Source of the DNA: an uncultured Nitrospirales bacterium | GTDB taxonomy: Bacteria > Nitrospirota > Thermodesulfovibrionia > UBA6902 > BMS3Bbin08 | Length of the DNA stretch: 64,000 bases | Direction: 5' to 3' | Assembly (NCBI GenBank): GCA_964574765.1 | Contig: CAZNPC010000001.1 | Location: forward strand, 28,720 to 92,719 | Part shown: in pieces, positions 13,200 to 39,138 of the stretch | Layout: each line of letters begins with the position of its first letter | Position numbering within the stretch: position 1 is the stretch's first letter | The notes under the pieces: model-generated | What the model was told of the DNA's origin: nothing | What the model saw: the letters and a program-made list of their open reading frames with translations, nothing else | Databases searched by the model: none | Translations under genes and position numbers: made by a program

Positions 13200-13226
13200 A
13201 TATTTATTATAGTATGTTCCGTAACA

Positions 13227-13672: not shown

Positions 13673-14404
13673 TTATTTTTTATGAGATAGTTCAGTAAAC
13701 CCCTCTCTCCTTATCATTGTTAGAATTATCGATAGAACCATTTTAAAGATATAATAAACAGGCTTAATACCCGAATGCATGGATATTGCTGAACCATACA
13801 TTTGTACCGGTACTTCCTTTATTCTGAACCCTGATCGCTTCAGCATTATCAGCGTATCTGCGTCAGGAAAATCCGCAGGGTATCTTTCATTGACGTAAAA
13901 ACGGAGCACATCCATGTTCAGTGCCTGATAACCTGATGTTGAATCAGTAATCGGCTGTTTCATTAAGATCGATGCAATGGAACTGAACATTCTCATGCCA
14001 AGCTTTCGCATAAAAGCGATCTTATAAACGTTCTTACCTATAAATCTTGAACCTATAATGACGTCGGCTTCGTTGCTTTTAAGTACCTTTAGAAGATCTG
14101 GAATATATGAGGCGTCATGCTGCCCGTCCCCGTCAAGTTGAACGACACAGTCATAACCATTCTTTAAGGCATATTTATAGCCTGTCTGAAGGGCGGCTCC
14201 ATAGCCGAGATTAAATGCATGGCTTATCACCAGCGCACCTTCCTTAAAAGCCTCGGTAGCACAATTATCAGTTGAACCGTCATCCACAGCTACAATCCTT
14301 GCATCCGGGGCCACCTGTTTGACATCAGCCACAACCTTCTTAATATTTAGCTCTTCGTTATACATTGGTATTATGATAAGAGTATTATCATATTTAGTCG
14401 TCAT
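13673..14404 (-). CDS. GT2 family glycosyltransferase (polyprenyl-phosphate sugar synthase, DPM1-like)
   Basis: IIIPMYNEELNI ... VDDGSTDN ... DGDGQHD GT-A motifs. 243 aa. Confidence 0.8.
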   Translation of the reverse strand: MTTKYDNTLIIIPMYNEELNIKKVVADVKQVAPDARIVAVDDGSTDNCATEAFKEGALVISHAFNLGYGAALQTGYKYALKNGYDCVVQLDGDGQHDASYIPDLLKVLKSNEADVIIGSRFIGKNVYKIAFMRKLGMRMFSSIASILMKQPITDSTSGYQALNMDVLRFYVNERYPADFPDADTLIMLKRSGFRIKEVPVQMYGSAISMHSGIKPVYYIFKMVLSIILTMIRREGFTELSHKK

Positions 14405-14502
14405 GGTTCAGATACCTTCTTTCACTCCAGATGTATTTATAAGCTCATATTTAACCACAAAGCAGTAGTGTATTTATTGTCCTCAATTATTTCAAGCTGT
14501 AT

Positions 14503-15948
14503 TTAATATTTCCTCAAAATTGATAGAGACGCCTTGAACTTGTTTAAAAAGTCAGTTAAACCATGTAATTTTTTTAGTCTTTTTAGAATATATGATGGCC
14601 TGAAATAAAACCTGAGATATGCTTTTCTTATGATCTTTTCCATGTTTTCTTTAGTAAGATGAGGGAATGATATAAGAGATTGTTTCATAGGATCTATGGG
14701 AACGTACTCATCAGCAATCATCCATTTGTTTTTCTTTGCGATTTCATGAAAGTTTGTATGGGGGAATGGTGTGCAAATTGAAAAAAGGGCGTAATCCACA
14801 TCGAGTTTTATAGTCTCTGAAATAGTGTATTCAATGGTCTCTTTTGTTTCAAGCGGACAACTGCCTATTAAAATATTAAGTTCAGGTTCAATTCCATATC
14901 TCTTAAGCATGTTGACTGCAGTATAAATCGATTCTACTTTTAGGTCCTTTCTAATATAATCAAGTATCTCCTGATTAAATGATTCAATTCCAATGTCGAT
15001 ATATTTACAGCCGGCTTCTGCCATTGCCTTTATCAATTCATTGTTTTCTAAATGATCTGCCCTTGCAAGGCAAGACCATTCCATATTGAGGTCTCGTATG
15101 CCATTACATATTTCAATAATTCGGCTGCGATTCCACACAAATTGGTCATCTAAAAAAGAAAAAGATTTAAAACCATGCTTGTGCAGCATTTTTATTTCTT
15201 CAATAATATTATCGGCCGACCTTAATCTTACCGGGGGTTTTTCCATTGCAGAACTACACCTTTTGAATTCAATCTCACGAGCAAAATCAAGAGAGTTTGG
15301 GACGCAATAATAACAATTGTAGGAACATCCCCGTGATGAGATCATAGTAGTAAAAGGCAGTGCACATAATTTAGGATTGTGATAGTTTGCCGGTTCAAGA
15401 AGTGTCCTATCCGGGAAAGGAAGTCGGTCGAGATTATCAATTAATTTCCGTCTCACAGTATCAACTTTATCGCCGTTCCTGAGACAGCTAATGCCCTCAA
15501 CATTTACAGGTTCTGCTTTTGATTTAATAACATCCACCAACTCTTTAATGCTATCTTCAGGTTCCCCTCTTATTACAAAGCTATTACTATCAATAAATTC
15601 AGAAGGGTTAACTGTGGGTTCAGTGCCCATGAAAATGAATTTCGCATCACTATTTTTCTCACTTATAATATCTCTTGCGCTAAGGTCTGTTTTTTTCGAG
15701 AGAAAAACTGTATAAAAAACGTATATGTCTGAGTCATCACTTGCTGCAAATTGATAAAATTCATTTTTTCTTACCTTTTCAATCGGTAAATCTCTTACGA
15801 TGACATCATAGCCAGCCTCTTTCAGAACTGTTGCCGGATAGAGAACAAAAATATTAGGTTGGGTGTAGATGCCGTAGTTGCAGCCAAAAATCCTTTCAGC
15901 CGCTGGCTTTCCATCAAGAGGAGGAGGTGTAAGAAAGGTTATCTTCAT
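14503..15948 (-). CDS. B12-binding-domain radical SAM protein (class B)
   Basis: Rossmann-like N-terminal domain, then CX3CX2C (GCSYNCYYC) radical-SAM cluster motif. 481 aa. Confidence 0.75.
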   Translation of the reverse strand: MKITFLTPPPLDGKPAAERIFGCNYGIYTQPNIFVLYPATVLKEAGYDVIVRDLPIEKVRKNEFYQFAASDDSDIYVFYTVFLSKKTDLSARDIISEKNSDAKFIFMGTEPTVNPSEFIDSNSFVIRGEPEDSIKELVDVIKSKAEPVNVEGISCLRNGDKVDTVRRKLIDNLDRLPFPDRTLLEPANYHNPKLCALPFTTMISSRGCSYNCYYCVPNSLDFAREIEFKRCSSAMEKPPVRLRSADNIIEEIKMLHKHGFKSFSFLDDQFVWNRSRIIEICNGIRDLNMEWSCLARADHLENNELIKAMAEAGCKYIDIGIESFNQEILDYIRKDLKVESIYTAVNMLKRYGIEPELNILIGSCPLETKETIEYTISETIKLDVDYALFSICTPFPHTNFHEIAKKNKWMIADEYVPIDPMKQSLISFPHLTKENMEKIIRKAYLRFYFRPSYILKRLKKLHGLTDFLNKFKASLSILRKY

Positions 15949-16958
15949 TACTTTATCTCGCTGTTTTTAATTGGATATATTAATTCTCTCATAAAACCCG
16001 TTGACCATGCAAAAAATATTATTGATATCACAGCAGGCACCCGCAAAGATACCTTAAAAGAACCAGTTTTAAATAGTGAGACCAAAAAATATATAAAAAG
16101 AAATAGTGCGTATATAAGGAATAAAGACGCAAACAACGGGCGAGAGAAGAAAAGTACAACAATGCCCATTGGCGGAGTTATCCCCACAAGTATATGAAAC
16201 ACATTGATCATCCTTTTGTCCCGTTTGCCTACCTGAAGCCTGCCTATGGCATACCTGTACATCTGCTTCCACAGCCTTACATGGGTCGGCCGCCTGTAAT
16301 GCCAGACAAAAACATCAGGCGTATATAAAAGGCTGTAGCCATTATCAATAATTCTTTGATTCATTTCAGTGTCGTCACAGGTGAGCAGGCCCTCGTCAAC
16401 AGGCATCACCTTTTCCAGTGCCTCCCTTTTATATATAGCGTTGCAGCCCGGTATGCTTCTTACTTTTTTTATTTCTTTTAGATTTCTTGCATGTACTGAC
16501 CCGGCCGCGAAGATCGCCTGACCGAAGACAAATCCCACTGCTTTGCCAAACAGGGTCTCATTTTCAGGGGTTAGATTTGGGCCCCCTACCCCGGCAATCG
16601 TTTCATCATCAAAATATTTAATAGAATTCTTCAACCAGTTTACGTCTGCAACGCAGTCCGCATCAGTAAACGCGATTATATCTCCTCTTGCCTGCTTAAA
16701 GGCAATATTTCTGCCGGGCGATACCGTACCTGAAGGATTTGCAACGACTCTTGCCCCAAGCTTTTCTGCTATTTTGACGGTATTATCAGTGGACTGGCCG
16801 TCAGCAACAATGATTTCATAAGAATTTCGCGGGTATTCCAGGGCATTTAAGGCATTAAGGCATTGTTCAATAAGGCGCTCCTCGTTCTTTGCGGGAATAA
16901 TAATAGAAACAAATGGGACCGGACTTTTTGTCTTGAACTCGTCAATTTGATTATCCAT
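15948..16958 (-). CDS. GT2 family glycosyltransferase with C-terminal TM helices
   Basis: VSIIIPAKNEERLIEQCL ... IIVADGQSTDNT ... FTDADC. Confidence 0.8.
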   Translation of the reverse strand: MDNQIDEFKTKSPVPFVSIIIPAKNEERLIEQCLNALNALEYPRNSYEIIVADGQSTDNTVKIAEKLGARVVANPSGTVSPGRNIAFKQARGDIIAFTDADCVADVNWLKNSIKYFDDETIAGVGGPNLTPENETLFGKAVGFVFGQAIFAAGSVHARNLKEIKKVRSIPGCNAIYKREALEKVMPVDEGLLTCDDTEMNQRIIDNGYSLLYTPDVFVWHYRRPTHVRLWKQMYRYAIGRLQVGKRDKRMINVFHILVGITPPMGIVVLFFSRPLFASLFLIYALFLFIYFLVSLFKTGSFKVSLRVPAVISIIFFAWSTGFMRELIYPIKNSEIK

Positions 16959-17005
16959 TATTAATATTTCAATTGCATTATTCGATAATTATATGGAATC
17001 ACGGT

Positions 17006-17923
17006 TTATTTGTTTTTAAAGTATTCAACAGTATTGATCAAGCCGTCCTCAAGAGACATATCGGGCTGCCAGTTTAAAACTTGACTGGCTTTTTTATGAT
17101 CAATTACGCTTCTCATCTGTTCTCCGGTCTTTTGCGGCCCGTGAACTTCATTTGCCTTACTCCCTGTTATTTTTACCAACATCTTATATATGGTATTAAC
17201 ATCAGTCTCAAGAGCTGTGCCTATATTGAAAATGCCTCCTTCGCCAGTCATGATCGCCATGCGGTTTGCCTTAACTACATCTCCAACATATACAAAATCT
17301 CTTGTTTGTCTGCCGTCTCCATTTATAACCGGCTGTTCATTGTGAAGGAGTTTCTGTATGAAAATAGCGACAACACCTGCTTCACCATAAGGGTCCTGCC
17401 TTGGTCCATATACATTGCCATATCTGAGGACCACATAATCAAGGCCGTAGTTAGACCTGTAATAGAACAAATAGTTCTCTACTGCTAATTTTGCCACTCC
17501 GTAAGGACTTATGGGTCTAAGCGGATGACTTTCATCAGCAGGGAAAATATCCTGCTCGCCGTAGATCGCGCCGCCTGTAGAAGCGAATATCATTTTTTTT
17601 GAATCGTATTTAATGCAATTCTGCAGGATGTTTATAGTACCTATAATATTGGTTCTCGCATCGAAAGCAGGGTCTGCCACAGAGCGCCGCACATCAACCT
17701 GTGCCGCGTGATGATTTACAAGATCAGGTTTGACCTCCTGAAAGATCTTTTCCAGATCAGGAGATCCGATATCAGCTTCAAAAAACCTTGCTTCCGGATT
17801 TATGTTTTCCCTGCGGCCTGAGGACAGATTATCAATAACAGCCACATCTTCACCCTGTTTAATGTACGCATCTACTATGTGAGAGGCTATGAACCCGGCG
17901 CCGCCGGTTACTAGTATTTTCAT
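17006..17923 (-). CDS. NAD-dependent nucleotide-sugar epimerase/dehydratase (GalE/WbpP-like)
   Basis: [20 protein letters not shown] Rossmann motif. YxxxK in YGVAKLAVE. Confidence 0.8.
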   Translation of the reverse strand: MKILVTGGAGFIASHIVDAYIKQGEDVAVIDNLSSGRRENINPEARFFEADIGSPDLEKIFQEVKPDLVNHHAAQVDVRRSVADPAFDARTNIIGTINILQNCIKYDSKKMIFASTGGAIYGEQDIFPADESHPLRPISPYGVAKLAVENYLFYYRSNYGLDYVVLRYGNVYGPRQDPYGEAGVVAIFIQKLLHNEQPVINGDGRQTRDFVYVGDVVKANRMAIMTGEGGIFNIGTALETDVNTIYKMLVKITGSKANEVHGPQKTGEQMRSVIDHKKASQVLNWQPDMSLEDGLINTVEYFKNK

Positions 17924-17944
17924 GACTGAATTATTTAAACACCC

Positions 17945-18162
17945 TCTTAACCACTGAAAACACTAAAACCACAGAATTTGTAAAATTATTTTTAAAAATT
18001 TTCATTTTTTGCAAAGCCTTTTCAGCGTATTCAGTGACCTCAGTGCCTGCCCGCCAGTCTGTTTGGTGGGGTTCATATTTTCATAGTTAATCGCCAATTG
18101 TCCGTAGTTAGTAATTAGTTTTTACCTCTTTCACTATTTTTTTTCAGTGTACTCTGTGTTTT
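17945..18162. repeat. MITE-like intergenic element bounded by 15-bp perfect terminal inverted repeats (aaccactgaaaacac ... gtgttttcagtggtt)
   Basis: Inverted repeats at 17945-17959 and 18148-18162. The interior shares the block ttcagtg(a/c)ctcagtgcctgccc...gccagtctgt with 59838-59895. Confidence 0.55.
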
Positions 18163-18179
18163 CAGTGGTTACTATGAGC

Positions 18180-19106
18180 TCATAGCTTTTCAAAATACTC
18201 AATCGTTTTCTTCAGCCCTTCTTCCAGTTTTACTTTTGGCTCCCACTTAAGCAGTTCCCGCGCAAGGGAGATGTCAGGCTGGCGCTGGGTTGGGTCATCT
18301 TCGGGAAGGGGTTTGTTTATTATCTTTGATTTAGAGCCGGTCATTTCAATGACCTTGTTCGCCATTTCCAGGATACTGTTCTCAACAGGATTGCCCAGGT
18401 TAACAGGGCCTGTAATATCGTCCGTGGTGTTCATGAGCCGCACCATCCCGTCTATCAGGTCATCGACATAGCAAAAGCTCCTTGTCTGGCTTCCTTCACC
18501 GAAAACTGTTATATCCTCACCTTTTAACGCCTGAACAATAAAGTTGCTGATAACCCTGCCGTCGTCAGGAAGCATCTTTGGTCCGTAAGTATTGAATATT
18601 CGTGCTACTTTTATTTTCAGTTTATGCTGGCGGTGATAGTCAAAAAAAAGGGTCTCTGCGCACCTCTTCCCCTCATCGTAACAGGACCGCGGCCCCACAG
18701 GGTTCACGTTTCCCCAGTAGCTTTCAGTCTGTGGATGAACTGTCGGATCTCCGTAGACCTCGGACGTGGACGCCTGAAATATCTTTGCCTTTATCCGTTT
18801 GGCAAGCCCGAGCATGTTAATAGAGCCGTGAACAGATGTCTTAGTTGTCTGCACAGGGTCAAATTGGTAATGTATGGGAGATGCAGGACAGGCAAGGTTA
18901 TAAATTTCATCGACCTCAACATACAGCGGAAAACATATATCATGCCTCATTACCTCAAATAAAGGGTTCGGGAAATGCTTTGCTATATTTGAACGCCGCC
19001 CCGTATAGAAATTATCAACACACAGAACATCATGGCCGTCATTGAGTAATCTCTCACACAAATGACTTCCTAAAAAACCTGCTCCGCCAGTAACTAATAT
19101 CCTCAT
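18180..19106 (-). CDS. uxs: UDP-glucuronate decarboxylase (UDP-xylose synthase)
   Basis: [41 protein letters not shown], highly characteristic of UXS/ArnA-decarboxylase type SDRs. Confidence 0.8.
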
Positions 19107-19261
19107 TTTCGCTCCTCAATATAGTTCATAGCCTTCGACCCGAGCTCAGGCCGAGGGTTTGATAGTTCATAGCTCATAGCTCATAGTAAAAACACTTAAA
19201 ATAGCCTTTAGTTCATAGTTGATATTATAGTTTATAGGTTAAACTTATAATAGCATATTCT
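19107..19261. repeat. intergenic repeat family A (AGCTCATAG / CTATGAGCT palindromic ends), copy between uxs and GT2
   Basis: The stretch gatagctcatagtaaaaaca(c/t)ttaaaatagcc(t/c)ttagttca(t/c)agtt(g/a)atattatagt is about 92% identical to 58606-58668. Related copies lie at 4056-4177 and 18164-18177 (perfect 14-bp palindrome CTATGAGCTCATAG). Confidence 0.6.
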
Positions 19262-20311
19262 CTAGCCGTCAGGGCTGCAATTTCCGGACTTTTCAGTCTT
19301 TGAAAGCCGCACAAACTCTTTGAACGCTAAAGTGAATGAAACTATGACTGATTGTCTAAATAAATAGCTGTCTTTGACCTTTCTCCTTGCCTGTATTTCC
19401 CTTCTCTTTCTCATCAACTCAGGCAGGTATCTGAGAAAAGAAAAATACGCCTTGATCATCAAAAAGGCCGATCTGAACTCCAGCTTTAAAAAAAAACCGA
19501 GCATTTTTACAAAATGATAAGGCAGTGACACAAACAAAGCGATAAACACGTTATGGAGCTGATAGTTCTTGACTATATTAAAAAGGGCGTTCCTTGTGCC
19601 GTAAAACACCCTTACCGGCACATCACGTTCTGTGCCTGAGGTCCCGCCGAACTTATGGTAGATCACAGACTCAGGCACATATTCCACTTTTTTGCCAAAA
19701 AGCCAGTATCTCCAGCAGAGGTCTGTATCCTCAAAATACATGAAATGTTCCTCATCAAAACCGCCTATTCCCAGGAATTCCTCTTTTCTGACCATCATGG
19801 CAGCCGCGCACACGCACCCCCTGAACCTTCTGACATTATATTTTTCAGAATCCTTATCCATAAAACCTATGTCAAAGCCACTGCCTGTGATAATGATGCT
19901 GGCGCCTGCTGAGTTCACTGTGTCAGGCCTGTCAAGAAGCAGTATCTTGCTTCCAACCGCGCCGACATTTTTGTCTTTCATTAGCGCGTCAACAAGCGGG
20001 TTCAGCCAGCCCGGGGTCACAACAGTGTCATTGTTCAGGAACATTACGTACTCGCCTGCGGCATTCCCGGCCCCGATATTATTCGCCTTTGCAAAGCCCG
20101 TGTTTTCATCAAGTGCAATGACCCTTACCCATGGAAAGTTTTCCCTTGTGAACTCAACACTTCCGTCTGATGAGGCATTATCTATCATAATGGTCTCGAT
20201 CTTATCAAGGGGGTAATTGCTCTGTTTCAGTGAGTCAAAACATTTTCTCAGGTACTCGATCCCGTTATAATTAACTATAACTATCGAAACGCCTGGAATT
20301 AATTCAGTCAT
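19262..20311 (-). CDS. GT2 family glycosyltransferase
   Basis: VSIVIVNYNGIEYLRKCFDSL ... IMIDNASSDGS ... FLNNDT. Confidence 0.8.
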   Translation of the reverse strand: MTELIPGVSIVIVNYNGIEYLRKCFDSLKQSNYPLDKIETIMIDNASSDGSVEFTRENFPWVRVIALDENTGFAKANNIGAGNAAGEYVMFLNNDTVVTPGWLNPLVDALMKDKNVGAVGSKILLLDRPDTVNSAGASIIITGSGFDIGFMDKDSEKYNVRRFRGCVCAAAMMVRKEEFLGIGGFDEEHFMYFEDTDLCWRYWLFGKKVEYVPESVIYHKFGGTSGTERDVPVRVFYGTRNALFNIVKNYQLHNVFIALFVSLPYHFVKMLGFFLKLEFRSAFLMIKAYFSFLRYLPELMRKRREIQARRKVKDSYLFRQSVIVSFTLAFKEFVRLSKTEKSGNCSPDG

Positions 20312-20376
20312 ACATTCAATCCTGTCATGATCTTTCTATATTTCATGTCCCGCACAATCGTAAAAAACAGATTTAT

Positions 20377-21765
20377 CTACTTTTTTATAAGGCCGAAAAA
20401 TATAAGTGGTTTTTTGACCGCCTCCTTGATGTGCGGATGGCGCAGGAAAAAAGGCATCATCTTTGTTCCTAATCCAAGCAACAAGCTGTTCCTCATAACA
20501 GGGCTGTCCATGCCCACTGATTCCATCAGGGCGCGGTTGAGAAATTTATAGTCCACACCTTTTATTTTGGCCTCGGTCGGATTTCTTCGGTAACTGTCAT
20601 GACTTTTGATCAGGGACAGATTATGTTCCATACAATATTTGAACAGATCGCTGCCCGGATGGGGCGTATAAAATGCCGGGCTGTAGTGTTCCGGTTTAAT
20701 GGTCTGTATCATCTTTATGGTATCCATCACCTCTTCTCTGGTTTCAGTCGGGATTCCCATCATATAATTGGCCCATATTTCAACGCCGTACTTTCTGCAG
20801 ATTTCCGCACTTTTGAAATTATGCTCCACTTTCGTTCCTTTACGAAGAAAATTTAATACCCTCTGATTTCCGCTTTCAAATCCGATAAACATCAACTTAA
20901 GACCGGCATCTGACATAAGCGCTATCATGTCTTCATTGCGACAGATTATATCAGCCCTGCTCTGACAGGCAAACGGCTGATTAAATCCCTTTTCCCTGTA
21001 CAGCCTGCAAAATTCGATTACCCAAGGCCTGTCTTCGGTAATGCAGTCATCATGGATCATCATGCTTTTGAAGTTATACTTTTCGTTTAGCATACACAGT
21101 TCCTCGATGACATTTGAAGGACTGCGGCGCCTTACCTTTTTCCCAAATATTAATCTCTCAGCCGGCTGGCAATAATTACAATTAAATTTACATCCCCTGC
21201 CCGCGATCAACGTCACAAACGGCCTCTCAAAGCCTTTAACAGGGAGAGGATATTCCAGATCTTTGAACAGATCTCTGTCTATAAAAGAAAGTTTGTCAAG
21301 GTCTTCAGGAAACACACCTTTAATTACCCGCGGCGGTTTGTTGCCTTTTTCAGTATCCCTTAATAGTTCAACAAATGATATCTCTCCTTCTCCTGTTATA
21401 ATATGATCAACCGCTGTTTCTTTTATCAGCTCTTCCGGTACTATGGTCGGGTGGGGCCCTCCGGCAACCGTTACAGTCTGCGGAGAAATTTTTTTTATTA
21501 TATTTATGGCCTTCATGGCCGGATTATAATCCACGCTCATCATGGTCACGCCGACCACATCCGGCTTTTTTTCAGAGATGATCTTTCTGAAGTGTTTCCA
21601 ACTCTTTAGACAACGCAGGTCGATCAGCTCGGTTTTATATCCCTGATCCCGTGCGTAAGCGCTAATACTGCATAACCCGTGGCTTATCCAGGACTCCTCC
21701 ATCCCGTTTCCATAACTGTTAAACCCTATGCCCGATATACCGGGGAACAATAAAATCGTTTTCAT
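20377..21765 (-). CDS. B12-binding-domain radical SAM protein (class B), second copy
   Basis: N-terminal Rossmann/B12-like domain, then CX3CX2C (GCKFNCNYC). 462 aa. Paralogous in architecture to 14503-15948. Confidence 0.75.
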   Translation of the reverse strand: MKTILLFPGISGIGFNSYGNGMEESWISHGLCSISAYARDQGYKTELIDLRCLKSWKHFRKIISEKKPDVVGVTMMSVDYNPAMKAINIIKKISPQTVTVAGGPHPTIVPEELIKETAVDHIITGEGEISFVELLRDTEKGNKPPRVIKGVFPEDLDKLSFIDRDLFKDLEYPLPVKGFERPFVTLIAGRGCKFNCNYCQPAERLIFGKKVRRRSPSNVIEELCMLNEKYNFKSMMIHDDCITEDRPWVIEFCRLYREKGFNQPFACQSRADIICRNEDMIALMSDAGLKLMFIGFESGNQRVLNFLRKGTKVEHNFKSAEICRKYGVEIWANYMMGIPTETREEVMDTIKMIQTIKPEHYSPAFYTPHPGSDLFKYCMEHNLSLIKSHDSYRRNPTEAKIKGVDYKFLNRALMESVGMDSPVMRNSLLLGLGTKMMPFFLRHPHIKEAVKKPLIFFGLIKK

Positions 21766-22829
21766 TTCCCGCCTCTTCCTGAAAATCTCCCTAAAATTTT
21801 CTCCACAACAGCGCGTCTAATGTTACTGAAAAAAAAGCGCTCCATGTATTCAGCAGATACTTTTTTTCTTTTCTGTATTTGAGTTCGTTTTCTTAGCATT
21901 AGCGGCACATACCTTAATGTCATAAACGGAACTTTCAATACAAACAGGTTCCCTTCAATCACCTTGGTGAAATAAAAACCTGTCTCTATAATCAGTATCC
22001 ATATGATATTTTTCAATGAACTCAGAAAGATGGCGTTTTTTATAATAGCAAGGCTCCTGTTGCGATAACCAATAAGAATATACTCTTTTTTCATTGTAGA
22101 ATTATTATGTCTGGTAGCTCCTCTGTTATGATAAGCAATCGCCGTCGGCGTATAAAGGGCCTTCCATCCGTACAATTGCGCGCGCCAGCATAGATCTACA
22201 TCTTCGAAATATATATAAAAGTCCTCATCAAAATATTCATCAAACAGTTTGATGTCTTCAAGCATATTTCTGCTCAGGAGAGGGGCAGCGCCTGAAGCGC
22301 CAAAAATATAATCTGCCTCATTATGATCACCGCTGTCAGTTTCATTGTTGTCTCTGTCTGAAGCAAACATCCCAAGCATTGTTATTCCAGTTGAATCTAT
22401 TATGTTTGTTCTTTTCTCATCTTTCAGAACATAAAGTTTTCCTGATACAATGCCAATCCCCGTTGCAGATTCAATAGCTTTAACCATCTCTTGAACAAAA
22501 TTAGGGGCAAGCACAATGTCAAAGTTAAGTGGAAGAATCAATTCACCTGATGATATTCTTATAGCCTGGTTATGCGCCTTGCTGAATCCTTCATTCCCGG
22601 CATTGGCTATAAGCCTTATTTCCGGATAATTATCAGAAAGAAATCTGACTGAGTCATCTGATGAATTATTGTCAATGATATTGATTTCAATATTTTCATA
22701 GGTCTGAGACTTTATAGATTCAATACAATTCCTTAAATAATTCAGGCCATTCCAGTTAACTATATTTATTGAAACAAGCTTCAATGTTTTCCCCCTAATA
22801 TCAGCTTTATTGTCAACTATCTGTTCCAT
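21762..22829 (-). CDS. GT2 family glycosyltransferase
   Basis: VSINIVNWNGLNYLRNCIESIKSQTY ... IIDNNSSDDS. Overlaps the rSAM stop by 4 nt. Confidence 0.75.
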   Translation of the reverse strand: MEQIVDNKADIRGKTLKLVSINIVNWNGLNYLRNCIESIKSQTYENIEINIIDNNSSDDSVRFLSDNYPEIRLIANAGNEGFSKAHNQAIRISSGELILPLNFDIVLAPNFVQEMVKAIESATGIGIVSGKLYVLKDEKRTNIIDSTGITMLGMFASDRDNNETDSGDHNEADYIFGASGAAPLLSRNMLEDIKLFDEYFDEDFYIYFEDVDLCWRAQLYGWKALYTPTAIAYHNRGATRHNNSTMKKEYILIGYRNRSLAIIKNAIFLSSLKNIIWILIIETGFYFTKVIEGNLFVLKVPFMTLRYVPLMLRKRTQIQKRKKVSAEYMERFFFSNIRRAVVEKILGRFSGRGGK

Positions 22830-24264
22830 CTTTCCTCTTAAATATTAAATTCAGCATTTTCCCTGTCCGGCGCTTAAACACATTTAAAACCATTTTGGTT
22901 AGTATACCCGCAAGTGCAATAATTCTGACAAAAAAAGGGATTTTACGGCCAAGCCGCCAAATCGTAAAGAATGCTTCAGACGGATTATTCCGTGTCATTT
23001 GCGTTATAAGTGAATATGCCCGATTCCTTTTACCATGTGCAAACGCAAAGGGCAAAAGCCATTCAGCGAGTTGACATTTATCGCTACAGTACCGACTAAT
23101 TCCGCCCTCAATATCATCATAGTCAATAAGGCCGCTTCCTGCTTTACTACTCAGCTCTGACCACACTTTCCCTGCAAGATATGAATTGTGCTTGCGCAAA
23201 AGAATACTAAAAAAAAGATTGTCCAACTGCCTCCCGCTTAAGCTGTCAGGGCCAAGACGATATTCATACATACATGTAACTTTATTAATATGCTGGAAAT
23301 CATACGACCTGGCCGCCTTTGTCCACAGGTCCCAATCCATGGCATTTGGTAAGTCCCTCTCAAAAAGGCCGACATTCTCAAAACAGTCTCTTCGATGAGC
23401 CATGCATAGAATAGGAATATAGTTGTTTTCAGCAAATCGTCCCGGATCGAAATCATACGAAAATTCCACTGCTTCTGACTTATGTTTCCATTCTCCGTCT
23501 ATATATACTTTGACAATACGTCGGGCATCGGTATAGGCAAAAGATGATGATTCCAGGGCCGTGACGAGATTCTGCAAATGGTCCGGAAAATATTGGTCAT
23601 CATCATCTAAATAGGCAATATATTTTGACCTGGATGCCAGAATTCCCTGATTAAGAGCATGTGACAGGCCGCCGTGTTCAACATATAGATACCGGATCTT
23701 ATCTGAGTGAAATGATTCAATAACAGCTTCGCATTCTCTTGAACCTCCATCATTAACAATGATTATCTCAAAGTCCTTAAAAGTCTGGTTCAGAACGCTC
23801 TCAATAGCCCTCTTAATATATTGGGCGCGGTTATAAGTCGGCATAATTACACTTATGGTACGCTCAGGAGGGTTATCAGTAAAAGCCTGCCGGATCAGGG
23901 ACAATTCCTTTTCTTTGACACTGGTGTATTTAGCCATAAGGCGGTCATACCTCATAACGGCATCACTGTTATCATCTTCAAGCAGTAATGCCTCTGCAGA
24001 ACAGATTGCAGCATAAATACTGCCTTTACTTTCAAAGTAGTTCAGTAAAAATGTCCAGGCAGTTGAATCCGCGGTCCCAAGCACGACTTTAGCCTTGGCA
24101 TCAATGAATTGAAACTCAGGGTTCAGGTCAATTTGCCGTCCGGCGGCAGAGAGGAACTTCGTGTAGTTTTCACCTGTAGGTCTGGCAGTTAAATTGCGAA
24201 CAGTATAGTCTGCCTCATCCGTACTGACGGCATCTGTTTTGTTTTTACTGTCCATAACACTCAC
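22813..24264 (-). CDS. GT2 family glycosyltransferase with N-terminal extension
   Basis: ISVIMPTYNRAQYIKRAIESVLNQTF ... IIVNDGGSRE ... YLDDDD. Confidence 0.75.
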   Translation of the reverse strand: MSVMDSKNKTDAVSTDEADYTVRNLTARPTGENYTKFLSAAGRQIDLNPEFQFIDAKAKVVLGTADSTAWTFLLNYFESKGSIYAAICSAEALLLEDDNSDAVMRYDRLMAKYTSVKEKELSLIRQAFTDNPPERTISVIMPTYNRAQYIKRAIESVLNQTFKDFEIIIVNDGGSRECEAVIESFHSDKIRYLYVEHGGLSHALNQGILASRSKYIAYLDDDDQYFPDHLQNLVTALESSSFAYTDARRIVKVYIDGEWKHKSEAVEFSYDFDPGRFAENNYIPILCMAHRRDCFENVGLFERDLPNAMDWDLWTKAARSYDFQHINKVTCMYEYRLGPDSLSGRQLDNLFFSILLRKHNSYLAGKVWSELSSKAGSGLIDYDDIEGGISRYCSDKCQLAEWLLPFAFAHGKRNRAYSLITQMTRNNPSEAFFTIWRLGRKIPFFVRIIALAGILTKMVLNVFKRRTGKMLNLIFKRKDGTDS

Positions 24265-24294
24265 TTACTCACAATATAATTGAATTCAAAAGCA

Positions 24295-25335
24295 TTATCT
24301 TTCGCCGGTTTCTCCTGTAGAGTCATTAACCTGATTGCGCTGAAAACGTAATTTTATAGATCGTAAAACATCGATCAGGGGCCTGGGCAGTAACGTAAGT
24401 ATCAAACATGCAGTAAAAAGCAGCCATGAGCGTCTGTACAAGGGGTTATTAATTACAGATCTCCATATTAATTTCAAAGCGCCCCTGTAGTCTTTTCCGC
24501 CGAACAGCACTGTGGCCCAGAAGTAATAATTTTGAGCAATTTCTTTTTTACTTTGAGACGAGAACCCTGGGATTGCATTATCAATAAAACTGTCGATTTC
24601 TTTCTCACTCATGGTCTGTAATCTGTCTTCCCCGTTTTGTCTTCTTTCTTTGGCCATCATAACAGCAAGACATGCATATTTATCCTGCATAGTTTTCCTG
24701 TTTACAGATATCGCACCGGGATTCACTCTCCATTTGTAAAGCGGTTCAGGTATATTGGCAATATCATACATCTCGGAAATGCGGAGCCAGAGATCGTAAT
24801 CCTGCGATGATTTAAATTCTTCCCGGTATAATCCAGACTTTCCCAGACATTCCCTTCTGAACATAACCGTTCCGTGCCCAAATTGATTTGTTGTTAACAA
24901 CTTCTCCTTCAATTCTCTTCGATCAGTTAAAGGCCTTACTTCATGAAGGACATTACCTTTTTCATTTATCATCAGATAATACGTGCCTACAAGACCGACT
25001 TCATTGTTTTCATTCAGAAAATTAACCTGTTTCTCAAACCGATCAGGTATGGATACGTCATCCGCGTCCATACGGGCGATATATTGTCCGTTGGACATAT
25101 TAATTCCCTTATTGAGCGACTTGGTCAGACCAATGTTTTTGTCATTTTCAATGAGCCTGATTCTGGGGTCCCTATATGATTCTAGGATCTCTTTTGTTCC
25201 GTCATTTGAACCGTCATTAATTATTAAGAATTCAAAATCTTCAAATTTCTGGCTCAGGATGCTGTCAACAGCTTCCCTGAGAAACTGTTCTCCGTTATAA
25301 ACAGACATTAATACTGTTACTTTAGGGACTTTCAT
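24295..25335 (-). CDS. GT2 family glycosyltransferase
   Basis: VTVLMSVYNGEQFLREAVDSILSQKF ... LIINDGSNDGT ... RMDADD. Confidence 0.8.
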   Translation of the reverse strand: MKVPKVTVLMSVYNGEQFLREAVDSILSQKFEDFEFLIINDGSNDGTKEILESYRDPRIRLIENDKNIGLTKSLNKGINMSNGQYIARMDADDVSIPDRFEKQVNFLNENNEVGLVGTYYLMINEKGNVLHEVRPLTDRRELKEKLLTTNQFGHGTVMFRRECLGKSGLYREEFKSSQDYDLWLRISEMYDIANIPEPLYKWRVNPGAISVNRKTMQDKYACLAVMMAKERRQNGEDRLQTMSEKEIDSFIDNAIPGFSSQSKKEIAQNYYFWATVLFGGKDYRGALKLIWRSVINNPLYRRSWLLFTACLILTLLPRPLIDVLRSIKLRFQRNQVNDSTGETGER

Positions 25336-25363
25336 ATCATATTCTTTAATTCATTTCTCCCAT

Positions 25364-27130
25364 TTACAACTGAATACCATTCTCCCTGAGCCAGACAAGA
25401 AGAACGAATATTTTCCAGTGATTATAATCAGGTTTGCCTAACAGTAGATGTTTTTTTAAACTTTCAATATATAAAGGCTTAACCAACTTTAACAGATTGG
25501 AACTTTCCTGATTGATTATCTCAAGCAGTTTTGTTTTAAATACATCCTCACCCATCCAGTACCGGACAGGTGCGCCAAATCCCATTTTCGGCCTTTCAAG
25601 AAAATCATCAGACATATCTCCAGACAATATTTCTTTAATAATAATCTTGCTTTTTTTGCTTGTCACTTTATCAGCCAGTGATAGTGCGTTTACAAAATTC
25701 ACAAGTTCATGGTCAAGAAAAGGGCATCTGGCCTCAAGACCGTTTGCCATCGAAGCAATATCCACTTTCTTGAAAAGATTATCAGGCAGTCTCTGATGCT
25801 GTTCATGAAAGATAATATCTTCTATCGAATTCAGCACAAGCTCATCAAAGTGTTCAAGCAATCCTGAGAGATCCAGATCGTAATTGAGCCTCAGTTCCTC
25901 TATAGAGCTGAAAGCCATCATATCCTGGTATTTACTCTTAAGGCTGATCTCTTTTGCGGGTCTGCCTTTTGCCAGATTTTTCAGGAAGGACAGGAATTTT
26001 AAATATTGTTTCATTAGATCGGCATACCGTGCGTATCCTCCAAACAGTTCATCACCGCCCTCACCTGTTAGAACAACTTTGAGGCTTTTAGACGCAAAAT
26101 CCGAGATCATGTACGTCGGCACACAGGCAGAATCCCCAAATGGCTCGGAATAACACGAAATTATCCTCTCGATTGCACGAAAATCAGGATTAATATCAAT
26201 GATATTGGGCTTTACGCCATATTTTTCGCTAGCGCGGCTAATATATTCATATTCGCTAATGTATGAACCAAACGTCGCAGAGAACGTTCTTATGTCGGGT
26301 TTTAATTTTGACGCATACTTTAAAACAGTTGTTGAATCAAGCCCACCGCTCAGAAATATGCCGACTTCCACATCAGCAATAAGATGTCTTTTTACAGCTT
26401 TTTCGAGCAAATACGAGGTATTATCCAGAATTTCGTGAAATTTCAGTTTTTCAATCCCGGATTCAGTATCATGGACAGAATATTTTCTAACTTTAATTCC
26501 ACTGGAATCAACAACAATGTAACTTTGGGGGGGCAGTTTATAAACATTTTTATATACAGCATGAGGTGCGGGAATGTAATTATAAAAAAAATAAAATGCA
26601 AGAGCCGACGCATTTAGCTCCATATCAACTTCCCTATGGTTTCGCAGAGCCTTCATTTCACTGGCAAATATAAAGTCTTTACCCGGGATGTAATAATATT
26701 CAAACGGTTTTTGACCAAATCTGTCTCTTGCGCAATATAAAATGTTTTCCTGAAAATCATAAATAGCAAGTGCAAACATACCGTTCAACATTCCGAACGC
26801 ATCAACCCCGTATGTTTCAAACAAATGAAGGATTACCTCAGTATCAGTTTTTGTCTTGAACTGGTGTAAAGTTAACTTATCCTTTAACTCACTGTAATTA
26901 TAAATTTCTCCATTAAATATAATGCACAACTCATTGTTTTCGTTGAAAATCGGCTGATTGCCAGTTTCGAGGTCTATAATTGACAGACGCCTGAAGCCAA
27001 GAGCTACATTATCTTTAATAAAGAAGCCTTTATCATCAGGACCCCTGTGCACAAGTGCAGAGGTCATTTTCTTTATAGAGTCACCGTCAGCCTTATTTCC
27101 AAATGAAAACTGACCTGCAATTCCGCACAT
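25364..27130 (-). CDS. asnB: asparagine synthetase (glutamine-hydrolysing) homologue, probable sugar-acid amidotransferase (WbpS-like role)
   Basis: N-terminal MCGIAGQF (class II amidotransferase catalytic Cys2). PP-loop SGGLDS. 588 aa. Located inside the glycan locus. Confidence 0.8.
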   Translation of the reverse strand: MCGIAGQFSFGNKADGDSIKKMTSALVHRGPDDKGFFIKDNVALGFRRLSIIDLETGNQPIFNENNELCIIFNGEIYNYSELKDKLTLHQFKTKTDTEVILHLFETYGVDAFGMLNGMFALAIYDFQENILYCARDRFGQKPFEYYYIPGKDFIFASEMKALRNHREVDMELNASALAFYFFYNYIPAPHAVYKNVYKLPPQSYIVVDSSGIKVRKYSVHDTESGIEKLKFHEILDNTSYLLEKAVKRHLIADVEVGIFLSGGLDSTTVLKYASKLKPDIRTFSATFGSYISEYEYISRASEKYGVKPNIIDINPDFRAIERIISCYSEPFGDSACVPTYMISDFASKSLKVVLTGEGGDELFGGYARYADLMKQYLKFLSFLKNLAKGRPAKEISLKSKYQDMMAFSSIEELRLNYDLDLSGLLEHFDELVLNSIEDIIFHEQHQRLPDNLFKKVDIASMANGLEARCPFLDHELVNFVNALSLADKVTSKKSKIIIKEILSGDMSDDFLERPKMGFGAPVRYWMGEDVFKTKLLEIINQESSNLLKLVKPLYIESLKKHLLLGKPDYNHWKIFVLLVWLRENGIQL

Positions 27131-27134
27131 TATC

Positions 27135-28253
27135 TCAATTAACCTCCTGTGCTCCCAACGCTTTTAAAACTCGCCTTGCAAGATTTCTAAACGGAGCAAA
27201 AATACTGCTGTAGTAGATTTTGCCAAGAAAAGAATTATCTAGGTGAAGCCTCAATGGTATGCTCATATATAGATTGATCGGACACAAAATGCAATAGTCA
27301 AATAGTTCCTCCCTAAACTTATTCCATTTTTCACTTTGCCATATATCAACTAGGTCTGAATCAAAAATATTACCCATAACGGGCTCATGCGAGTACTCAA
27401 CCATGTTGCATGGGTGTACATCTCCATTTGCAAGAATTAGCGCAAAGTTTTTTGGCCGTTGGCATGGAGTCATCTTAGCCTCTTTCGGCCTGTAAATTCC
27501 CTTAGCAAAATTTGCGATGGAGGTGATCTTTTCGCTGTAGCAGCTTTCTAGCGTAGAGATAGCATCTTGTCTAACTGAAGCCGGTAATTTTTTACAGAAA
27601 TCAATGGCCTTTGGCAGAGTATTTTCTTTAAAATCTGCGATTTCATTTTTATTGAGCAAAAATTTCTTATCAAAGTCTCCTTCAAGGTAAGTAAACGCTA
27701 TCGTTTGAGAGCCTAGATTATAATGAAGCTCTATCAGCTCAGGAAGAGATTTATAGTTTTCCCTCATAAGAAGTGTCTGAGTTATAACGCTGAATTTCGG
27801 GTATCTCTTCCTGAGTTCAGCAAATATTCGTACTGCACTTGTTGCCTTCTTCCATAAGCCAGGATTACACCTCATTTTGTCATGAGCATCCGGGTATGGG
27901 CTATAAAGTGATATGGCTATAGAATCTAAACCAGCCCGTAAAAGTTCGTATGCATATGCTTCTGTTATCTGACTCCCATTAGAGTTTAAATTAACGTACC
28001 AGCCTTTTCCTTTGGCTGCACTAATTAAGTCTGTCAAGCGCTTATAAAGCGTTGGTTCTCCGCCGCTGATATCAAGCCGTCTGGTTCCAAGCGATTCAGC
28101 GTTATCAAAGACCTTAAGCCATTGTTCAACTGACAACGACTTTCTTTTAATCAGTTCCTTATGGAGATCTTTTCTAAATGAGCATGTTGGACAGTTAGAC
28201 GTACACGCCAAAGTAGGTTTAATTACTAGTTGTTCAAGTTTATATTTAGTCAT
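27135..28253 (-). CDS. radical SAM protein with C-terminal auxiliary Cys cluster (SPASM/twitch-like)
   Basis: CX3CX2C (CTSNCPTC) near the N-terminus. C-terminal Cys-rich segment (PC...HPC...YCILC). Confidence 0.7.
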   Translation of the reverse strand: MTKYKLEQLVIKPTLACTSNCPTCSFRKDLHKELIKRKSLSVEQWLKVFDNAESLGTRRLDISGGEPTLYKRLTDLISAAKGKGWYVNLNSNGSQITEAYAYELLRAGLDSIAISLYSPYPDAHDKMRCNPGLWKKATSAVRIFAELRKRYPKFSVITQTLLMRENYKSLPELIELHYNLGSQTIAFTYLEGDFDKKFLLNKNEIADFKENTLPKAIDFCKKLPASVRQDAISTLESCYSEKITSIANFAKGIYRPKEAKMTPCQRPKNFALILANGDVHPCNMVEYSHEPVMGNIFDSDLVDIWQSEKWNKFREELFDYCILCPINLYMSIPLRLHLDNSFLGKIYYSSIFAPFRNLARRVLKALGAQEVN

Positions 28254-28279
28254 CTTTTATTCTTCCCTGAGTTAAAAAG

Positions 28280-37812: not shown

Positions 37813-38492
37813 TATTTACGCTCCTTTCGCATCTGTTTATACAGGAACTCTGCCATAAGAAAATCGAGTTCTTCGTCAATATCAAGGGCTTCGAGCCTGT
37901 TAATTTCGAACATAAGGGGCCTGTTTCCAATGCGGTTACGCCCTGATTCAAGATTTTCCCGGTTAAAGATATATATGTTCGAGTTTTCTTCAAACACAGG
38001 GGGCAAATCCTGTGTGCGAAGCAGTTCATCTGGATTGTGATTTAAAGGCCCTGTTTCCGCGCTCCAGAGGCGGCTTTGTAAGCGGCTGACTGAAAAAAGA
38101 GAGTCATAGGATGGCAGTTTGCTTAAGAAAGTATTGATGGCCGACGTAATGGTTTCCGGCCTCAACAGAGGATTGGTGCTGTGGGTCTGAAGATACCAGT
38201 CAGCATCTGTCTGGGTGACGTCGTACAGAAGGACCTCATTCATTGGTATACTGCCTGCCCTGAGATGTTCAGGCCGCTCAATGACGCGAACTCCGGGAAA
38301 TTTCTTAGCCGCATCTTTCTGAATAAATGCACTGTCAGTGTCTATCATAATTTCAGATATTAAGCGGCATTCGAGGAGAGTCGAGATTATATTATGGTAC
38401 AATGGGCGGCCATTAAAGGACCGATAGTTTTTCCCGGGCACGCGGTCACTTTCATGACGCATGGGCACAAGTGCGACGATTTTATCTGCCAT
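37812..38492 (-). CDS. acylneuraminate/CMP-sugar cytidylyltransferase family protein (CTP_transf_3)
   Basis: IVALVPMRHESDRVPGKNYRSFNGRPL ... IMIDTDS, the NeuA/KdsB/PseF-type nucleotidyltransferase N-terminus. Confidence 0.7.
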   Translation of the reverse strand: MADKIVALVPMRHESDRVPGKNYRSFNGRPLYHNIISTLLECRLISEIMIDTDSAFIQKDAAKKFPGVRVIERPEHLRAGSIPMNEVLLYDVTQTDADWYLQTHSTNPLLRPETITSAINTFLSKLPSYDSLFSVSRLQSRLWSAETGPLNHNPDELLRTQDLPPVFEENSNIYIFNRENLESGRNRIGNRPLMFEINRLEALDIDEELDFLMAEFLYKQMRKERK

Positions 38493-39138
38493 CAGACATT
38501 ACCTCCATGGAAGGTACTAAGACCGCTCTGGCCGGTGCGCCTTCCGCCCCCATAAGTTTCAAAGGCAGACATAAAAGCTCATATTGTCCGGGAATGGCAT
38601 CTGACAGATTGAGTCCCTCTAAAATAACTGTTCCCGCCTCAAGCAGGATGCGGTGGACATTCGGTGCACCATGATAACGCTGTATTGAAAGGTAATCGAT
38701 GCCGGCAAGCATAATGCCATTTTTAACTATCCACGCGGCTGCATCCTCGGTCAATGCTACGTAGTCGGGATTAAAACCTTCCTTGCTCCAGAGGCCTGAA
38801 TTTTTGGTTTTAAAGAGAATCTTTTCTGTACTATCCGGCAGGCTGAGTTCAGAAAGATCCCTCTCCCCTATCGAATCGACACTGGTCAGATCAGCTACAA
38901 AGACCGGGCCACATAAAATGTCAAGCGGAAGCAGATCTACACTTTCTCCGACTTCAATATAGTGTAACGGTGCTTCTACATGGGTACCAGCATGCACATC
39001 ACATTCAATGGTTGAGTCATTGGACATATCACCTTTTCCTATTCTCTTTACCCATTTATGACGTATACCGATACTCTCGGGCCAAACCGGCATTCCTTTA
39101 TACAAAGTTACCGAGATATCAATGATGCTCATAATCAA
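38482..39138 (-). CDS. cyclase family protein (kynurenine formamidase-like metal hydrolase fold)
   Basis: HAGTHVEAPLHY motif of PF04199. 218 aa. Confidence 0.7.
   Translation of the reverse strand: MIMSIIDISVTLYKGMPVWPESIGIRHKWVKRIGKGDMSNDSTIECDVHAGTHVEAPLHYIEVGESVDLLPLDILCGPVFVADLTSVDSIGERDLSELSLPDSTEKILFKTKNSGLWSKEGFNPDYVALTEDAAAWIVKNGIMLAGIDYLSIQRYHGAPNVHRILLEAGTVILEGLNLSDAIPGQYELLCLPLKLMGAEGAPARAVLVPSMEVMSDGR

Follow-up and report, generated by a model that had tools for sequence, protein, structure and literature searches.

A twitch-type radical SAM enzyme paired with an AsnB-type amidotransferase: a candidate tailoring module in a Wzm/Wzt glycan locus of an uncultured Nitrospirales bacterium

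Introduction

What might a radical S-adenosylmethionine (SAM) enzyme do when its gene lies directly beside that of an AsnB-type amidotransferase, within a locus for a cell-surface glycan? This question is raised by a 64,000-nucleotide (nt) stretch of DNA from an uncultured Nitrospirales bacterium (positions 28,720 to 92,719 of contig CAZNPC010000001.1, assembly GCA_964574765.1), hereafter the window, in which the two genes together span positions 25364 to 28253. A preliminary description of the window had called the pairing unexpected and had offered two options for the radical SAM enzyme (rSAM), namely radical chemistry on a sugar or maturation of a protein. Antibiotic pathways offer examples of radical SAM enzymes that work on sugars (BtrN, BlsE, DesII and NeoN), and with several twitch-type and related enzymes known to act on sugars (BtrN, BlsE, NeoN, SpeY and DesII) the word unexpected was too strong. 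We know of no such chemistry in the pathways that build bacterial surface polysaccharides or the glycans of glycoproteins, and a literature search returned no relevant report of an rSAM in the context of O-antigen, exopolysaccharide or flagellin glycosylation, or of an rSAM paired with an AsnB. Here we propose, with moderate confidence, that rSAM and AsnB form a functionally coupled tailoring module of a Wzm/Wzt cell-surface glycan pathway, in which both enzymes would act on the same glycan unit.

Results

The rSAM gene precedes asnB by four nucleotides

The features central to this work are the following.

27135 to 28253, minus strand: rSAM gene (372 residues), with CX3CX2C at C17/C21/C24, GGE at residues 64-66, and C264-x17-C282 ... 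C321-x2-C324
27131 to 27151, minus strand: gene junction, with a GGAGG Shine-Dalgarno sequence in the last rSAM codons, the TGA stop codon, a 4-nt spacer and the ATG of asnB
25364 to 27130, minus strand: AsnB-type glutamine-dependent amidotransferase gene (588 residues), with the M-C2-GIAG nucleophile and the PP-loop SGGLDS intact
24295 to 25335, minus strand: GT2 glycosyltransferase gene (EpsE/TuaG-like by Pfam and NCBIfam), the third conserved member of the module

Both open reading frames (ORFs) of the pair are present with the domains previously ascribed to them (Pfam and NCBIfam), and the 4-nt separation of the stop at 27135 from the start at 27130 can be read directly in the DNA (...GGAGGttaatTGAgataATG): the rSAM stop codon occupies positions 27137-27135, four nucleotides follow, and the ATG of asnB begins at 27130. 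The adjacency claimed for the two genes therefore stands, and their order has to be reversed, since on the minus strand rSAM is transcribed first and AsnB second. The junction is consistent with translational coupling and, to judge from its sequence, supports co-translation of the two proteins. The same 4-nt spacing is found in two related loci (L174 and L175) whose AsnB is 82% identical to that of the window, and the intergenic gaps around the pair measure 4-28 nt. A scan of positions 13000-32999 for promoters and terminators gave counts close to those of shuffled controls and offered no guide to the limits of the operon.

Four conserved C-terminal cysteines point to a twitch domain in rSAM

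The 372-residue protein matches the Pfam models Radical_SAM (PF04055; 81.6 bits, cutoff 29.5) and SPASM (PF13186; 49.6 bits, cutoff 21.5; residues 264-324). We analyzed its cysteines in an alignment of 24 homologues (43-60% identity), in which the GGE motif is invariant, and then in a census of 123 sequences. The CX3CX2C triad is kept in 119 of the 123 sequences, the other four being fragments. Exactly four cysteines are conserved toward the C terminus, in the layout C-x12-G-x4-C ... C-x2-C-P; C264 is found in all 123 sequences, and C282, C321 and C324 are each found in 122. Position 220 is a cysteine in 67% of the sequences, all other remaining columns are below 50% cysteine, and 103 of the 123 homologues have no cysteine within the 60 residues that follow the CxxC. 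Across the census the seven-cysteine SPASM motif (CX9-15GX4C...CX2CX5CX3C...C) is missing both its CX5CX3C element and its distal cysteine. The pattern expected of a BtrN-type twitch domain, C...C...CxxC, is present, with its four cysteines 99-100% conserved. Because only these four cysteines are conserved and the seven-cysteine, two-cluster signature is missing, the C-terminal domain is, by its cysteine pattern, a truncated SPASM (twitch) domain with room for one auxiliary cluster, not two. A twitch domain has been described as a truncated SPASM domain that holds one auxiliary cluster, and the auxiliary cluster of BtrN has four cysteine ligands and is associated with two-electron oxidation (PMC9012708). 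The C-terminal cysteine cluster reported in the preliminary description is thus genuine and conserved in orthologues, and its assignment to the SPASM/twitch class narrows to the four-cysteine twitch type rather than the seven-cysteine SPASM type.

Neither Pfam nor NCBIfam contains a profile that places rSAM in a known non-SPASM family. Among NCBIfam equivalogs there were 54 weak matches, none of them near its cutoff (the best was PqqE, at 94.5 bits against 381), and the family for this reason stays without a name; on these profile scores rSAM is best described as a member of an unnamed family within the SPASM/twitch group. A link to the 'trio' families was considered and rejected, the matches of rSAM to TIGR03104 and TIGR03913 being weak and far below cutoffs. 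When the C-terminal 121 residues were searched alone against PDB sequences, BtrN was the sole match (E = 1.6e-6), with C264 aligned to BtrN C169 and C282 to BtrN C187. When a profile of rSAM was searched against PDB sequences, BlsE ranked first (3.8e-17). From the alignment of 24 sequences we also obtained a confident AlphaFold2 model (mean pLDDT 89.7, pTM 0.87), which has as structural neighbours, after BlsE, SkfB (23.8), SuiB (22.3), PqqE (22.0), CteB, MoaA (21.4), anSME (the anaerobic sulfatase-maturating enzyme, 21.2), DesII (20.6) and BtrN (17.9), and Foldseek returned the same set. The nearest solved relatives of rSAM are therefore a mix of sugar-acting and peptide-acting enzymes.

An exhaustive profile search of 1.84 billion representative sequences (E <= 1e-30) gave 327 clusters at 50% identity, so that the family comprises at least about 330 clusters at this level. 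The closest named relatives come from Pirellulales/Planctomycetota metagenome-assembled genomes (MAGs). A search of a phage database with rSAM found only a distant, MoaA-like match at 25% identity. As a separate observation, one family member that is 52% identical to rSAM (P0045; L093, positions 7001-7996) lies on a 219-kb contig with many small unannotated ORFs and with Macro-domain and DNA methylase genes, which looks like a large phage.

Members of the rSAM family are repeatedly fused to glycosyltransferases

Related loci were gathered by exact homologue look-up, from representative genomes in GTDB and from JGI metagenomes. Their ORFs were labelled by phmmer with the proteins of the window and with confirmed partner proteins, and samples of the labels were checked against Pfam and NCBIfam. 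In several of these loci (L006, L094/L095, L096 and L098) a single ORF, without stop codons or runs of N, encodes an N-terminal rSAM followed by a PaaK-like enzyme, a GT2, a second GT2 and further domains. These polyproteins are 1642 residues long in a Pirellulales MAG (L006), at least 2344 residues in L096 and at least 2136 residues in L098; the ORF of L006 has no X residues and is a genuine fusion protein. In addition to GT2 domains the polyproteins carry FkbM methyltransferase and GT4 domains. The two best matches of the family search, P0247 (2103 residues) and P0248 (1383 residues), are likewise long proteins with an N-terminal rSAM, and P0247 has four GT2 domains by Pfam. Three more architectures are independent of the rSAM-PaaK-GT2 arrangement, namely three GT1 domains with an rSAM (P0249), GT2, GT28 and GT4 with two rSAM domains (P0378), and an rSAM with GT4 (P0300). 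No other line of evidence argues as strongly for a family that acts on carbohydrate as these recurrent fusions to glycosyltransferases; on the strength of these architectures a sugar is the strongly favoured candidate substrate of rSAM, as one of the two options put forward at the outset would have it.

Multidomain rSAM proteins of other kinds were also seen, with three tandem rSAM-SPASM units in P0291 (1444 residues) and a B12-binding rSAM plus three rSAM-SPASM units in P0312 (1927 residues). P0092 is a fusion of rSAM with Methyltransf_24 that lies in a flagellin-Maf glycosylation island. Flagellin genes were found a few kb upstream of two family members (L096, positions 470-1660, before the rSAM polyprotein; L092, positions 2652-4124, before the rSAM-methyltransferase fusion), so that for some members of the family the role may lie in the glycosylation of flagellin and not in lipid-linked glycans.

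Within one clade the rSAM gene is always followed by AsnB or a PaaK/CapK-like enzyme

We constructed a neighbour-joining tree of rSAM family members and delineated a window clade of about 50% identity or more. The gene downstream of rSAM could be read in 15 loci of this clade, and in each of them it, or the corresponding portion of the polyprotein, encodes either an AsnB or a PaaK/CapK-like enzyme. AsnB is present in seven of the 15 (the window, L007, L100, L089, L099, L087 and L090), and a PaaK-like enzyme in the other eight, as a separate gene in L086, L088, L091 and L097 and as a fusion in L095, L096, L098 and L006. The PaaK-like proteins match PaaK, F390-synthetase and AMP-ligase models. 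Outside the clade, neither partner was found in any of about 45 family loci. In the tree, carriers of AsnB and carriers of PaaK-like enzymes are interleaved, and we therefore conclude that each replaced the other more than once. Recurrence of the rSAM-AsnB pair in other genomes is thus borne out, with the amendment that AsnB is not universal, a PaaK/CapK-like enzyme taking its place in about half of the clade.

The GT2 that follows AsnB or PaaK is orthologous across the clade (38-65% identity), and in the polyproteins it is the domain after PaaK. Two loci retrieved from the AsnB search (L174 and L175) have the same arrangement of rSAM, a 4-nt gap, AsnB and then GT2. On the upstream side clade members always have a class I methyltransferase and often a Glyco_trans_1_2 protein. 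A further trait of the clade lies in rSAM itself, where Arg266, two residues past the first auxiliary cysteine, is found in 87% of sequences inside the clade vs 21% outside; we take this as a weak hint that the substrate may be anionic.

Other arrangements were noted in passing. On Patescibacteria-type and other contigs (L008, positions 3612-5316; L009, L011, L013, L111, L115 and L146) a class I methyltransferase of 224-227 residues directly follows rSAM. In L008, L009, L111, L115 and L146 an ORF of about 496 residues lies directly upstream of rSAM, and where checked (L008 and L009) it is a class II aminoacyl-tRNA synthetase; no obvious glycan locus surrounds the pair. In L012 a B12-binding rSAM follows a pair of rSAM and methyltransferase. 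A PaaK-like protein (L086, positions 9131-10456) matches the DVU_1553 AMP ligase model, a methyltransferase (L007, positions 9225-9857) matches the DVU_1556 methyltransferase model, and the second-best NCBIfam model for rSAM itself is TIGR04317, for a maturase of a tungsten-cofactor oxidoreductase. These three models belong to one Desulfovibrio cassette; the matches are best or near-best and all far below cutoffs, a coincidence for which we have no explanation.

The AsnB partner resembles amidotransferases of glycan loci

The 588-residue protein has GATase_7, GATase_6 and Asn_synthase domains by Pfam, passes TIGR01536 (asparagine synthase; 419.2 bits, cutoff 267.1), and carries MCGIAG at residues 1-6 and SGGLDS from residue 261. 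By these motifs it is a bona fide class II amidotransferase. The second-best NCBIfam model is TIGR03108, eps_aminotran_1 (E = 1.2e-123), whose group includes WbpS, WbqG and PGN_1234, enzymes that turn uronic acids into uronamides (PMC7468200). The AsnBs linked to rSAM form a small separate subgroup (42-82% identity), beyond which identity falls to a plateau of at most 39% among thousands of paralogues. Cys2 and the SGGxDS PP-loop are retained in every rSAM-linked AsnB, and, as far as motifs can tell, the partner enzymes of both types look catalytically competent.

The pair lies in an ABC-transporter-dependent glycan locus

We scanned the main ORFs of the window, comprising most of those of at least 120 residues, against Pfam. 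The locus that contains the pair is made up as follows.

33580 to 34461, minus strand: Wzm ABC-2 permease gene (ABC2_membrane), at the head of the locus
31730 to 32950, minus strand: Wzt ABC-transporter ATPase gene with a C-terminal glycan-binding domain (ABC_tran and Wzt_C)
30745 to 31686, minus strand: sulfotransferase gene (Sulfotransfer_1)
29872 to 30630, minus strand: DUF268-type methyltransferase gene, with homologues at 69-70% identity in the module of L086 and L090
28280 to 29860, minus strand: gene for a fusion of Glyco_trans_1_2 (CgeB-like GT-B) and class I methyltransferase, directly upstream of rSAM
13673 to 24264, minus strand: the downstream remainder of the locus, with six GT2 genes, two B12-binding rSAM genes and two NAD-dependent epimerase/dehydratase genes

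The gene order after this Wzm/Wzt pair, the second in the window, is therefore sulfotransferase, DUF268 methyltransferase, Glyco_trans_1_2 fusion, rSAM, AsnB and a block of six GT2 genes interspersed with the two B12-binding rSAM genes, accompanied by the two epimerase/dehydratase genes and followed by one more GT2 gene, and the sulfotransferase and methyltransferase genes indeed border rSAM as had been noted. Homologues of the Glyco_trans_1_2-methyltransferase fusion (34-46% identity) lie directly upstream of rSAM in L086, L087 and L090 also. With Wzm, a Wzt that has the Wzt_C domain, and seven downstream GT2 genes, the locus has the composition of one that makes an ABC-transporter-dependent glycan. 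No flagellin or sulfatase gene was found in these Pfam scans of the window.

The locus is part of a supercluster of glycan genes of about 40 kb, almost all on the minus strand, whose other members include the following nucleotide-sugar genes and a NusG paralogue.

58715 to 59779: nucleotidyltransferase gene (nucleotide-sugar)
57004 to 58023: RmlB-like gene
55949 to 56779: RmlD gene
54663 to 55154, minus strand: NusG paralogue gene, at the head of the same-strand supercluster
53211 to 54353: Gmd gene
51441 to 52481: epimerase/reductase gene

The NusG paralogue probably acts as an antiterminator specific to its operon. The two Wzm/Wzt pairs of the window stand in tandem (49335-51535 and 31730-34461, both on the minus strand), each with a Wzt_C domain, and each is followed by its own sulfotransferase (42651-43688 and 30745-31686, respectively) and methyltransferases, which suggests that two distinct glycans are made, both sulfated, methylated and exported by ABC transporters. 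Between wzm and wzt lies a gene (33081-33461, minus strand) that encodes a 23S rRNA intervening-sequence protein (PF05635). A block at 35115-39138 (minus strand) contains MptE/Maf-like, SDR, D-2-hydroxyacid dehydrogenase, CTP_transf_3 cytidylyltransferase and cyclase-family genes; it may supply a CMP-activated acidic sugar or substituent branch, and hence may be a possible source of a carboxylate. The two B12-binding rSAM genes (14503-15948 and 20377-21765, both on the minus strand) have GT2 neighbours with abutting or overlapping boundaries, and with rSAM they bring the radical SAM enzymes of this one glycan locus to three. The glycan region is flanked on both sides by genes for multihaem cytochromes (paired CXXCH) and NHL beta-propeller proteins (5458-8836 and 60158-62152, both on the minus strand). 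Three ORFs in or beside the glycan loci, all on the minus strand, have no Pfam match (40066-41433, 455 residues; 43870-44802, 310 residues; 8897-10540, 547 residues).

Discussion

How a coupled module might work

The reaction sequence that we envisage begins with an rSAM that would hold its SAM-cleaving [4Fe-4S] cluster and a single auxiliary cluster fully ligated by the four conserved cysteines, as in a BtrN-type twitch domain. It would generate a 5'-deoxyadenosyl radical, which would take a hydrogen from a sugar residue, be it activated as a nucleotide sugar or incorporated in the lipid-linked glycan beforehand, with the auxiliary cluster serving as a conduit for electrons. The outcome might be a two-electron oxidation of the BtrN type, which we would prefer, an epimerization, which we place after it, or a BlsE-like decarboxylation, which we place last. 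AsnB would adenylate a carboxylate that the same unit of the glycan carries, and would convert it into a carboxamide with ammonia from glutamine, much as WbpS and WbqG do for uronic acids; in sister lineages the PaaK/CapK-like, adenylate-forming enzyme would carry out the activation of the carboxylate instead. The adjacent GT2 would then use or install the modified residue.

Known enzymes furnish precedents for the individual steps and differ from the proposed module in instructive ways. BtrN, the 2-deoxy-scyllo-inosamine dehydrogenase of butirosin biosynthesis (PDB 4M7S/4M7T), has, like rSAM, a twitch domain with four cysteines, which ligate a single auxiliary [4Fe-4S] cluster that in rSAM is a predicted one; its CxxC follows C169 and C187 as that of rSAM follows C264 and C282, it too has no RRE (RiPP recognition element) domain, and its substrate is a carbohydrate-like small molecule. 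The sequence similarity between the two is confined to the C-terminal ~60 residues, however, and BtrN is a protein of 250-270 residues from an aminoglycoside cluster, whereas rSAM has 372 residues and lies in a Wzm/Wzt glycan locus. BlsE, the cytosylglucuronate decarboxylase of blasticidin S biosynthesis (PDB 7VOB), shares the overall fold of rSAM and acts on a sugar acid, which would fit with the carboxylate-activating partners of rSAM. BlsE is nevertheless only 15-17% identical to it, the sequence alignment covering the N-terminal core (residues 8-190), and it works on a nucleoside antibiotic intermediate without AsnB, PaaK or GT2 partners. With one match limited to the C terminus, the other limited to the core, and a glycan-locus context, rSAM is not an orthologue of either. 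NeoN, the radical SAM epimerase of neomycin C-5''', works directly on a carbon of a sugar in a substrate that resembles an oligosaccharide (PMC10991966). It provides a precedent for radical epimerization of a sugar, was not retrieved by searches with rSAM, and bears on a reaction that would need a hydrogen donor; apart from the iron-sulfur ligands rSAM has no family-wide cysteine, the one at position 220 being present in only 67%.

The locus as a whole also has counterparts. WbpS, WbqG and PGN_1234, of O-antigen and A-LPS pathways, are, like AsnB, paralogues in surface-glycan loci with an N-terminal cysteine and a PP-loop, but their systems have UDP-sugar 6-dehydrogenase genes, of which none was found in the window, and have no rSAM partner. 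The giant polyproteins of the related loci recall the multi-module enzymes of ABC-transporter-dependent O-polysaccharide systems of the WbbB and WbdA/WbdD types in Klebsiella and E. coli, and a Wzm and Wzt_C head with tailoring genes directly after wzt is common to such loci and to that of the window. A modular organization has been described for ABC-transporter-dependent O-polysaccharide assembly (PMC11231755). Canonical SPASM maturases (anSME, PqqE, SuiB, CteB and MftC) share with rSAM the Pfam SPASM match and the radical SAM core, and differ from it in having the seven-cysteine motif, a second auxiliary cluster, an RRE, and a precursor peptide or sulfatase. To our knowledge no described ABC-transporter O-polysaccharide system has an rSAM, AsnB or PaaK-like module, and our literature search found none.

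Evidence against the coupled module and alternatives to it

Several observations weigh against a coupled module that acts on one residue. Neither in the Pfam scans of the 64-kb window nor in the annotated flanks of L086-L091 did we find a UDP-sugar 6-dehydrogenase (UDPG_MGDP_dh type) or another gene that would obviously provide a sugar carboxylate, so that the uronic-acid substrates suggested in the preliminary description are not backed by the locus. The match of AsnB to TIGR03108 reaches 414.1 bits against a cutoff of 816.9 and falls into two stretches, the better one covering residues 1-370; by this measure AsnB is related to the WbpS/WbqG group, yet is no scored member of it. In the wider family it is a class I methyltransferase, rather than an adenylating enzyme, that most constantly neighbours rSAM, and the core reaction of rSAM may therefore be independent of a carboxylate. 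The polyproteins join rSAM to many other enzymes of the pathway, so that fusion speaks for a shared pathway and not for a shared residue. The family is without any characterized member, and the peptide maturases SkfB, SuiB, PqqE and CteB are structurally almost as near to rSAM as BlsE is.

These points lend themselves to a different explanation, which we regard as possible, although the balance of evidence is tilted away from it. The two enzymes could belong to one assembly line and tailor different residues or positions, with adjacency and fusion reflecting co-expression and with the true partner of rSAM being the neighbouring class I methyltransferase, which might, for example, methylate the position that rSAM has modified. 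Such a methyltransferase is adjacent or fused to rSAM in L007, L008, L009, L011, L012, L013, L016, L088, L089 and P0092, the polyproteins bring together many enzymes, including GT2, FkbM methyltransferase and GT4, and no gene for the supply of uronic acid was found in the window. Independent targets would, however, leave unaccounted for a linkage to AsnB or PaaK that is clade-specific and all-or-none (15 of 15 loci inside the clade, 0 of about 45 outside), the repeated exchange of the two partners at a single slot between rSAM and the same GT2, the small and distinct subgroup that the rSAM-linked AsnBs form, and a clade-specific arginine that adjoins the first auxiliary cysteine. The missing dehydrogenase could also mean that rSAM itself makes the carboxylate or a carboxylate-bearing skeleton, by iterative radical oxidation of a sugar CH2OH or CHO group or by radical formation of a C-C bond, before AsnB or the PaaK-like enzyme amidates the product. 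In favour of this are the lack of a UDP-sugar dehydrogenase in the window and the related loci alike, the invariable position of rSAM immediately upstream of the carboxylate-activating enzyme, and a four-cysteine auxiliary cluster typical of oxidizing twitch and SPASM enzymes (PMC9012708). Uronic acids could come from a housekeeping dehydrogenase encoded at another place in the genome, and family members outside the clade do without an adenylating partner. As we also know of no precedent for an rSAM oxidase that forms uronates, we consider it decidedly unlikely.

That rSAM matures a peptide or protein, for example flagellin, an S-layer glycoprotein or another enzyme of the locus, in the manner of anSME or of the maturases of RiPPs (peptides made by the ribosome and modified after translation), is highly unlikely, despite the closeness of its fold to those of SkfB, SuiB, CteB, PqqE and anSME and the flagellin genes near two related loci (L092 and L096). 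With the CX3CX2C motif starting at residue 17, the protein has no RRE-type extension at its N terminus, the gaps of 4 to 28 nt are too small for a precursor ORF, the cysteines would accommodate one auxiliary cluster only, no NCBIfam maturase cutoff is reached, the window encodes Wzm and Wzt and no gene for flagellin or a sulfatase was found in it, and the family is repeatedly fused to glycosyltransferases. On every feature of a RiPP or anSME maturase that we tested rSAM fell short, and the proposal that it matures a protein component, which had accompanied that of sugar chemistry, is thereby disfavoured. Two specific versions were rejected outright, a RiPP cassette for want of precursor space and an RRE domain, and anSME-like sulfatase maturation on the grounds that the locus has sulfotransferases, not sulfatases, and that rSAM has four of these cysteines, not seven or eight. 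It is more improbable still that AsnB is an asparagine synthetase paralogue of amino-acid metabolism that happens to lie beside rSAM. Its score above the TIGR01536 cutoff and its intact catalytic motifs would be expected of such an enzyme. Against a coincidence, its place next to rSAM, inside an operon for a glycan, is kept on contigs that are divergent from one another, a PaaK-like enzyme substitutes at the same slot, and close relatives with readable flanks (L007, L174 and L175) all lie directly downstream of rSAM.

Implications

What is new here is the recruitment of a twitch rSAM into surface-glycan assembly lines and its coupling to amidating enzymes, sugar-acting twitch rSAMs being known already. 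A more specific version of the coupled module, which we think unlikely but put forward as a speculation, is that the clade provides the missing oxidase, or a C5-directed radical epimerase or oxidase, of a route by which acidic and amidated sugars would arise independently of NAD and at the level of the polymer. In it rSAM would create or rearrange the carbon that bears the carboxyl group of a glycan residue, and the residue would pass straight to an adenylating enzyme, with AsnB yielding a primary amide and the PaaK-like enzyme a substituted amide, within a glycosyltransferase megaenzyme. Were that so, it would be the first radical SAM step described in the assembly of a bacterial surface polysaccharide. 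The natural rSAM-ligase-GT2 polyproteins would make convenient constructs for biochemistry.

Our analysis defines a family of rSAMs with repeated fusions to glycosyltransferases, and within it one clade whose coupling to carboxylate-amidating enzymes is strict. If the coupled module acts as we propose, glycan tailoring would gain a radical step that is oxygen-independent, and the module would account for some of the as yet unassigned glycan modifications in anaerobic and uncultured bacteria such as Planctomycetota, Acidobacteriota, Omnitrophota and Patescibacteria.

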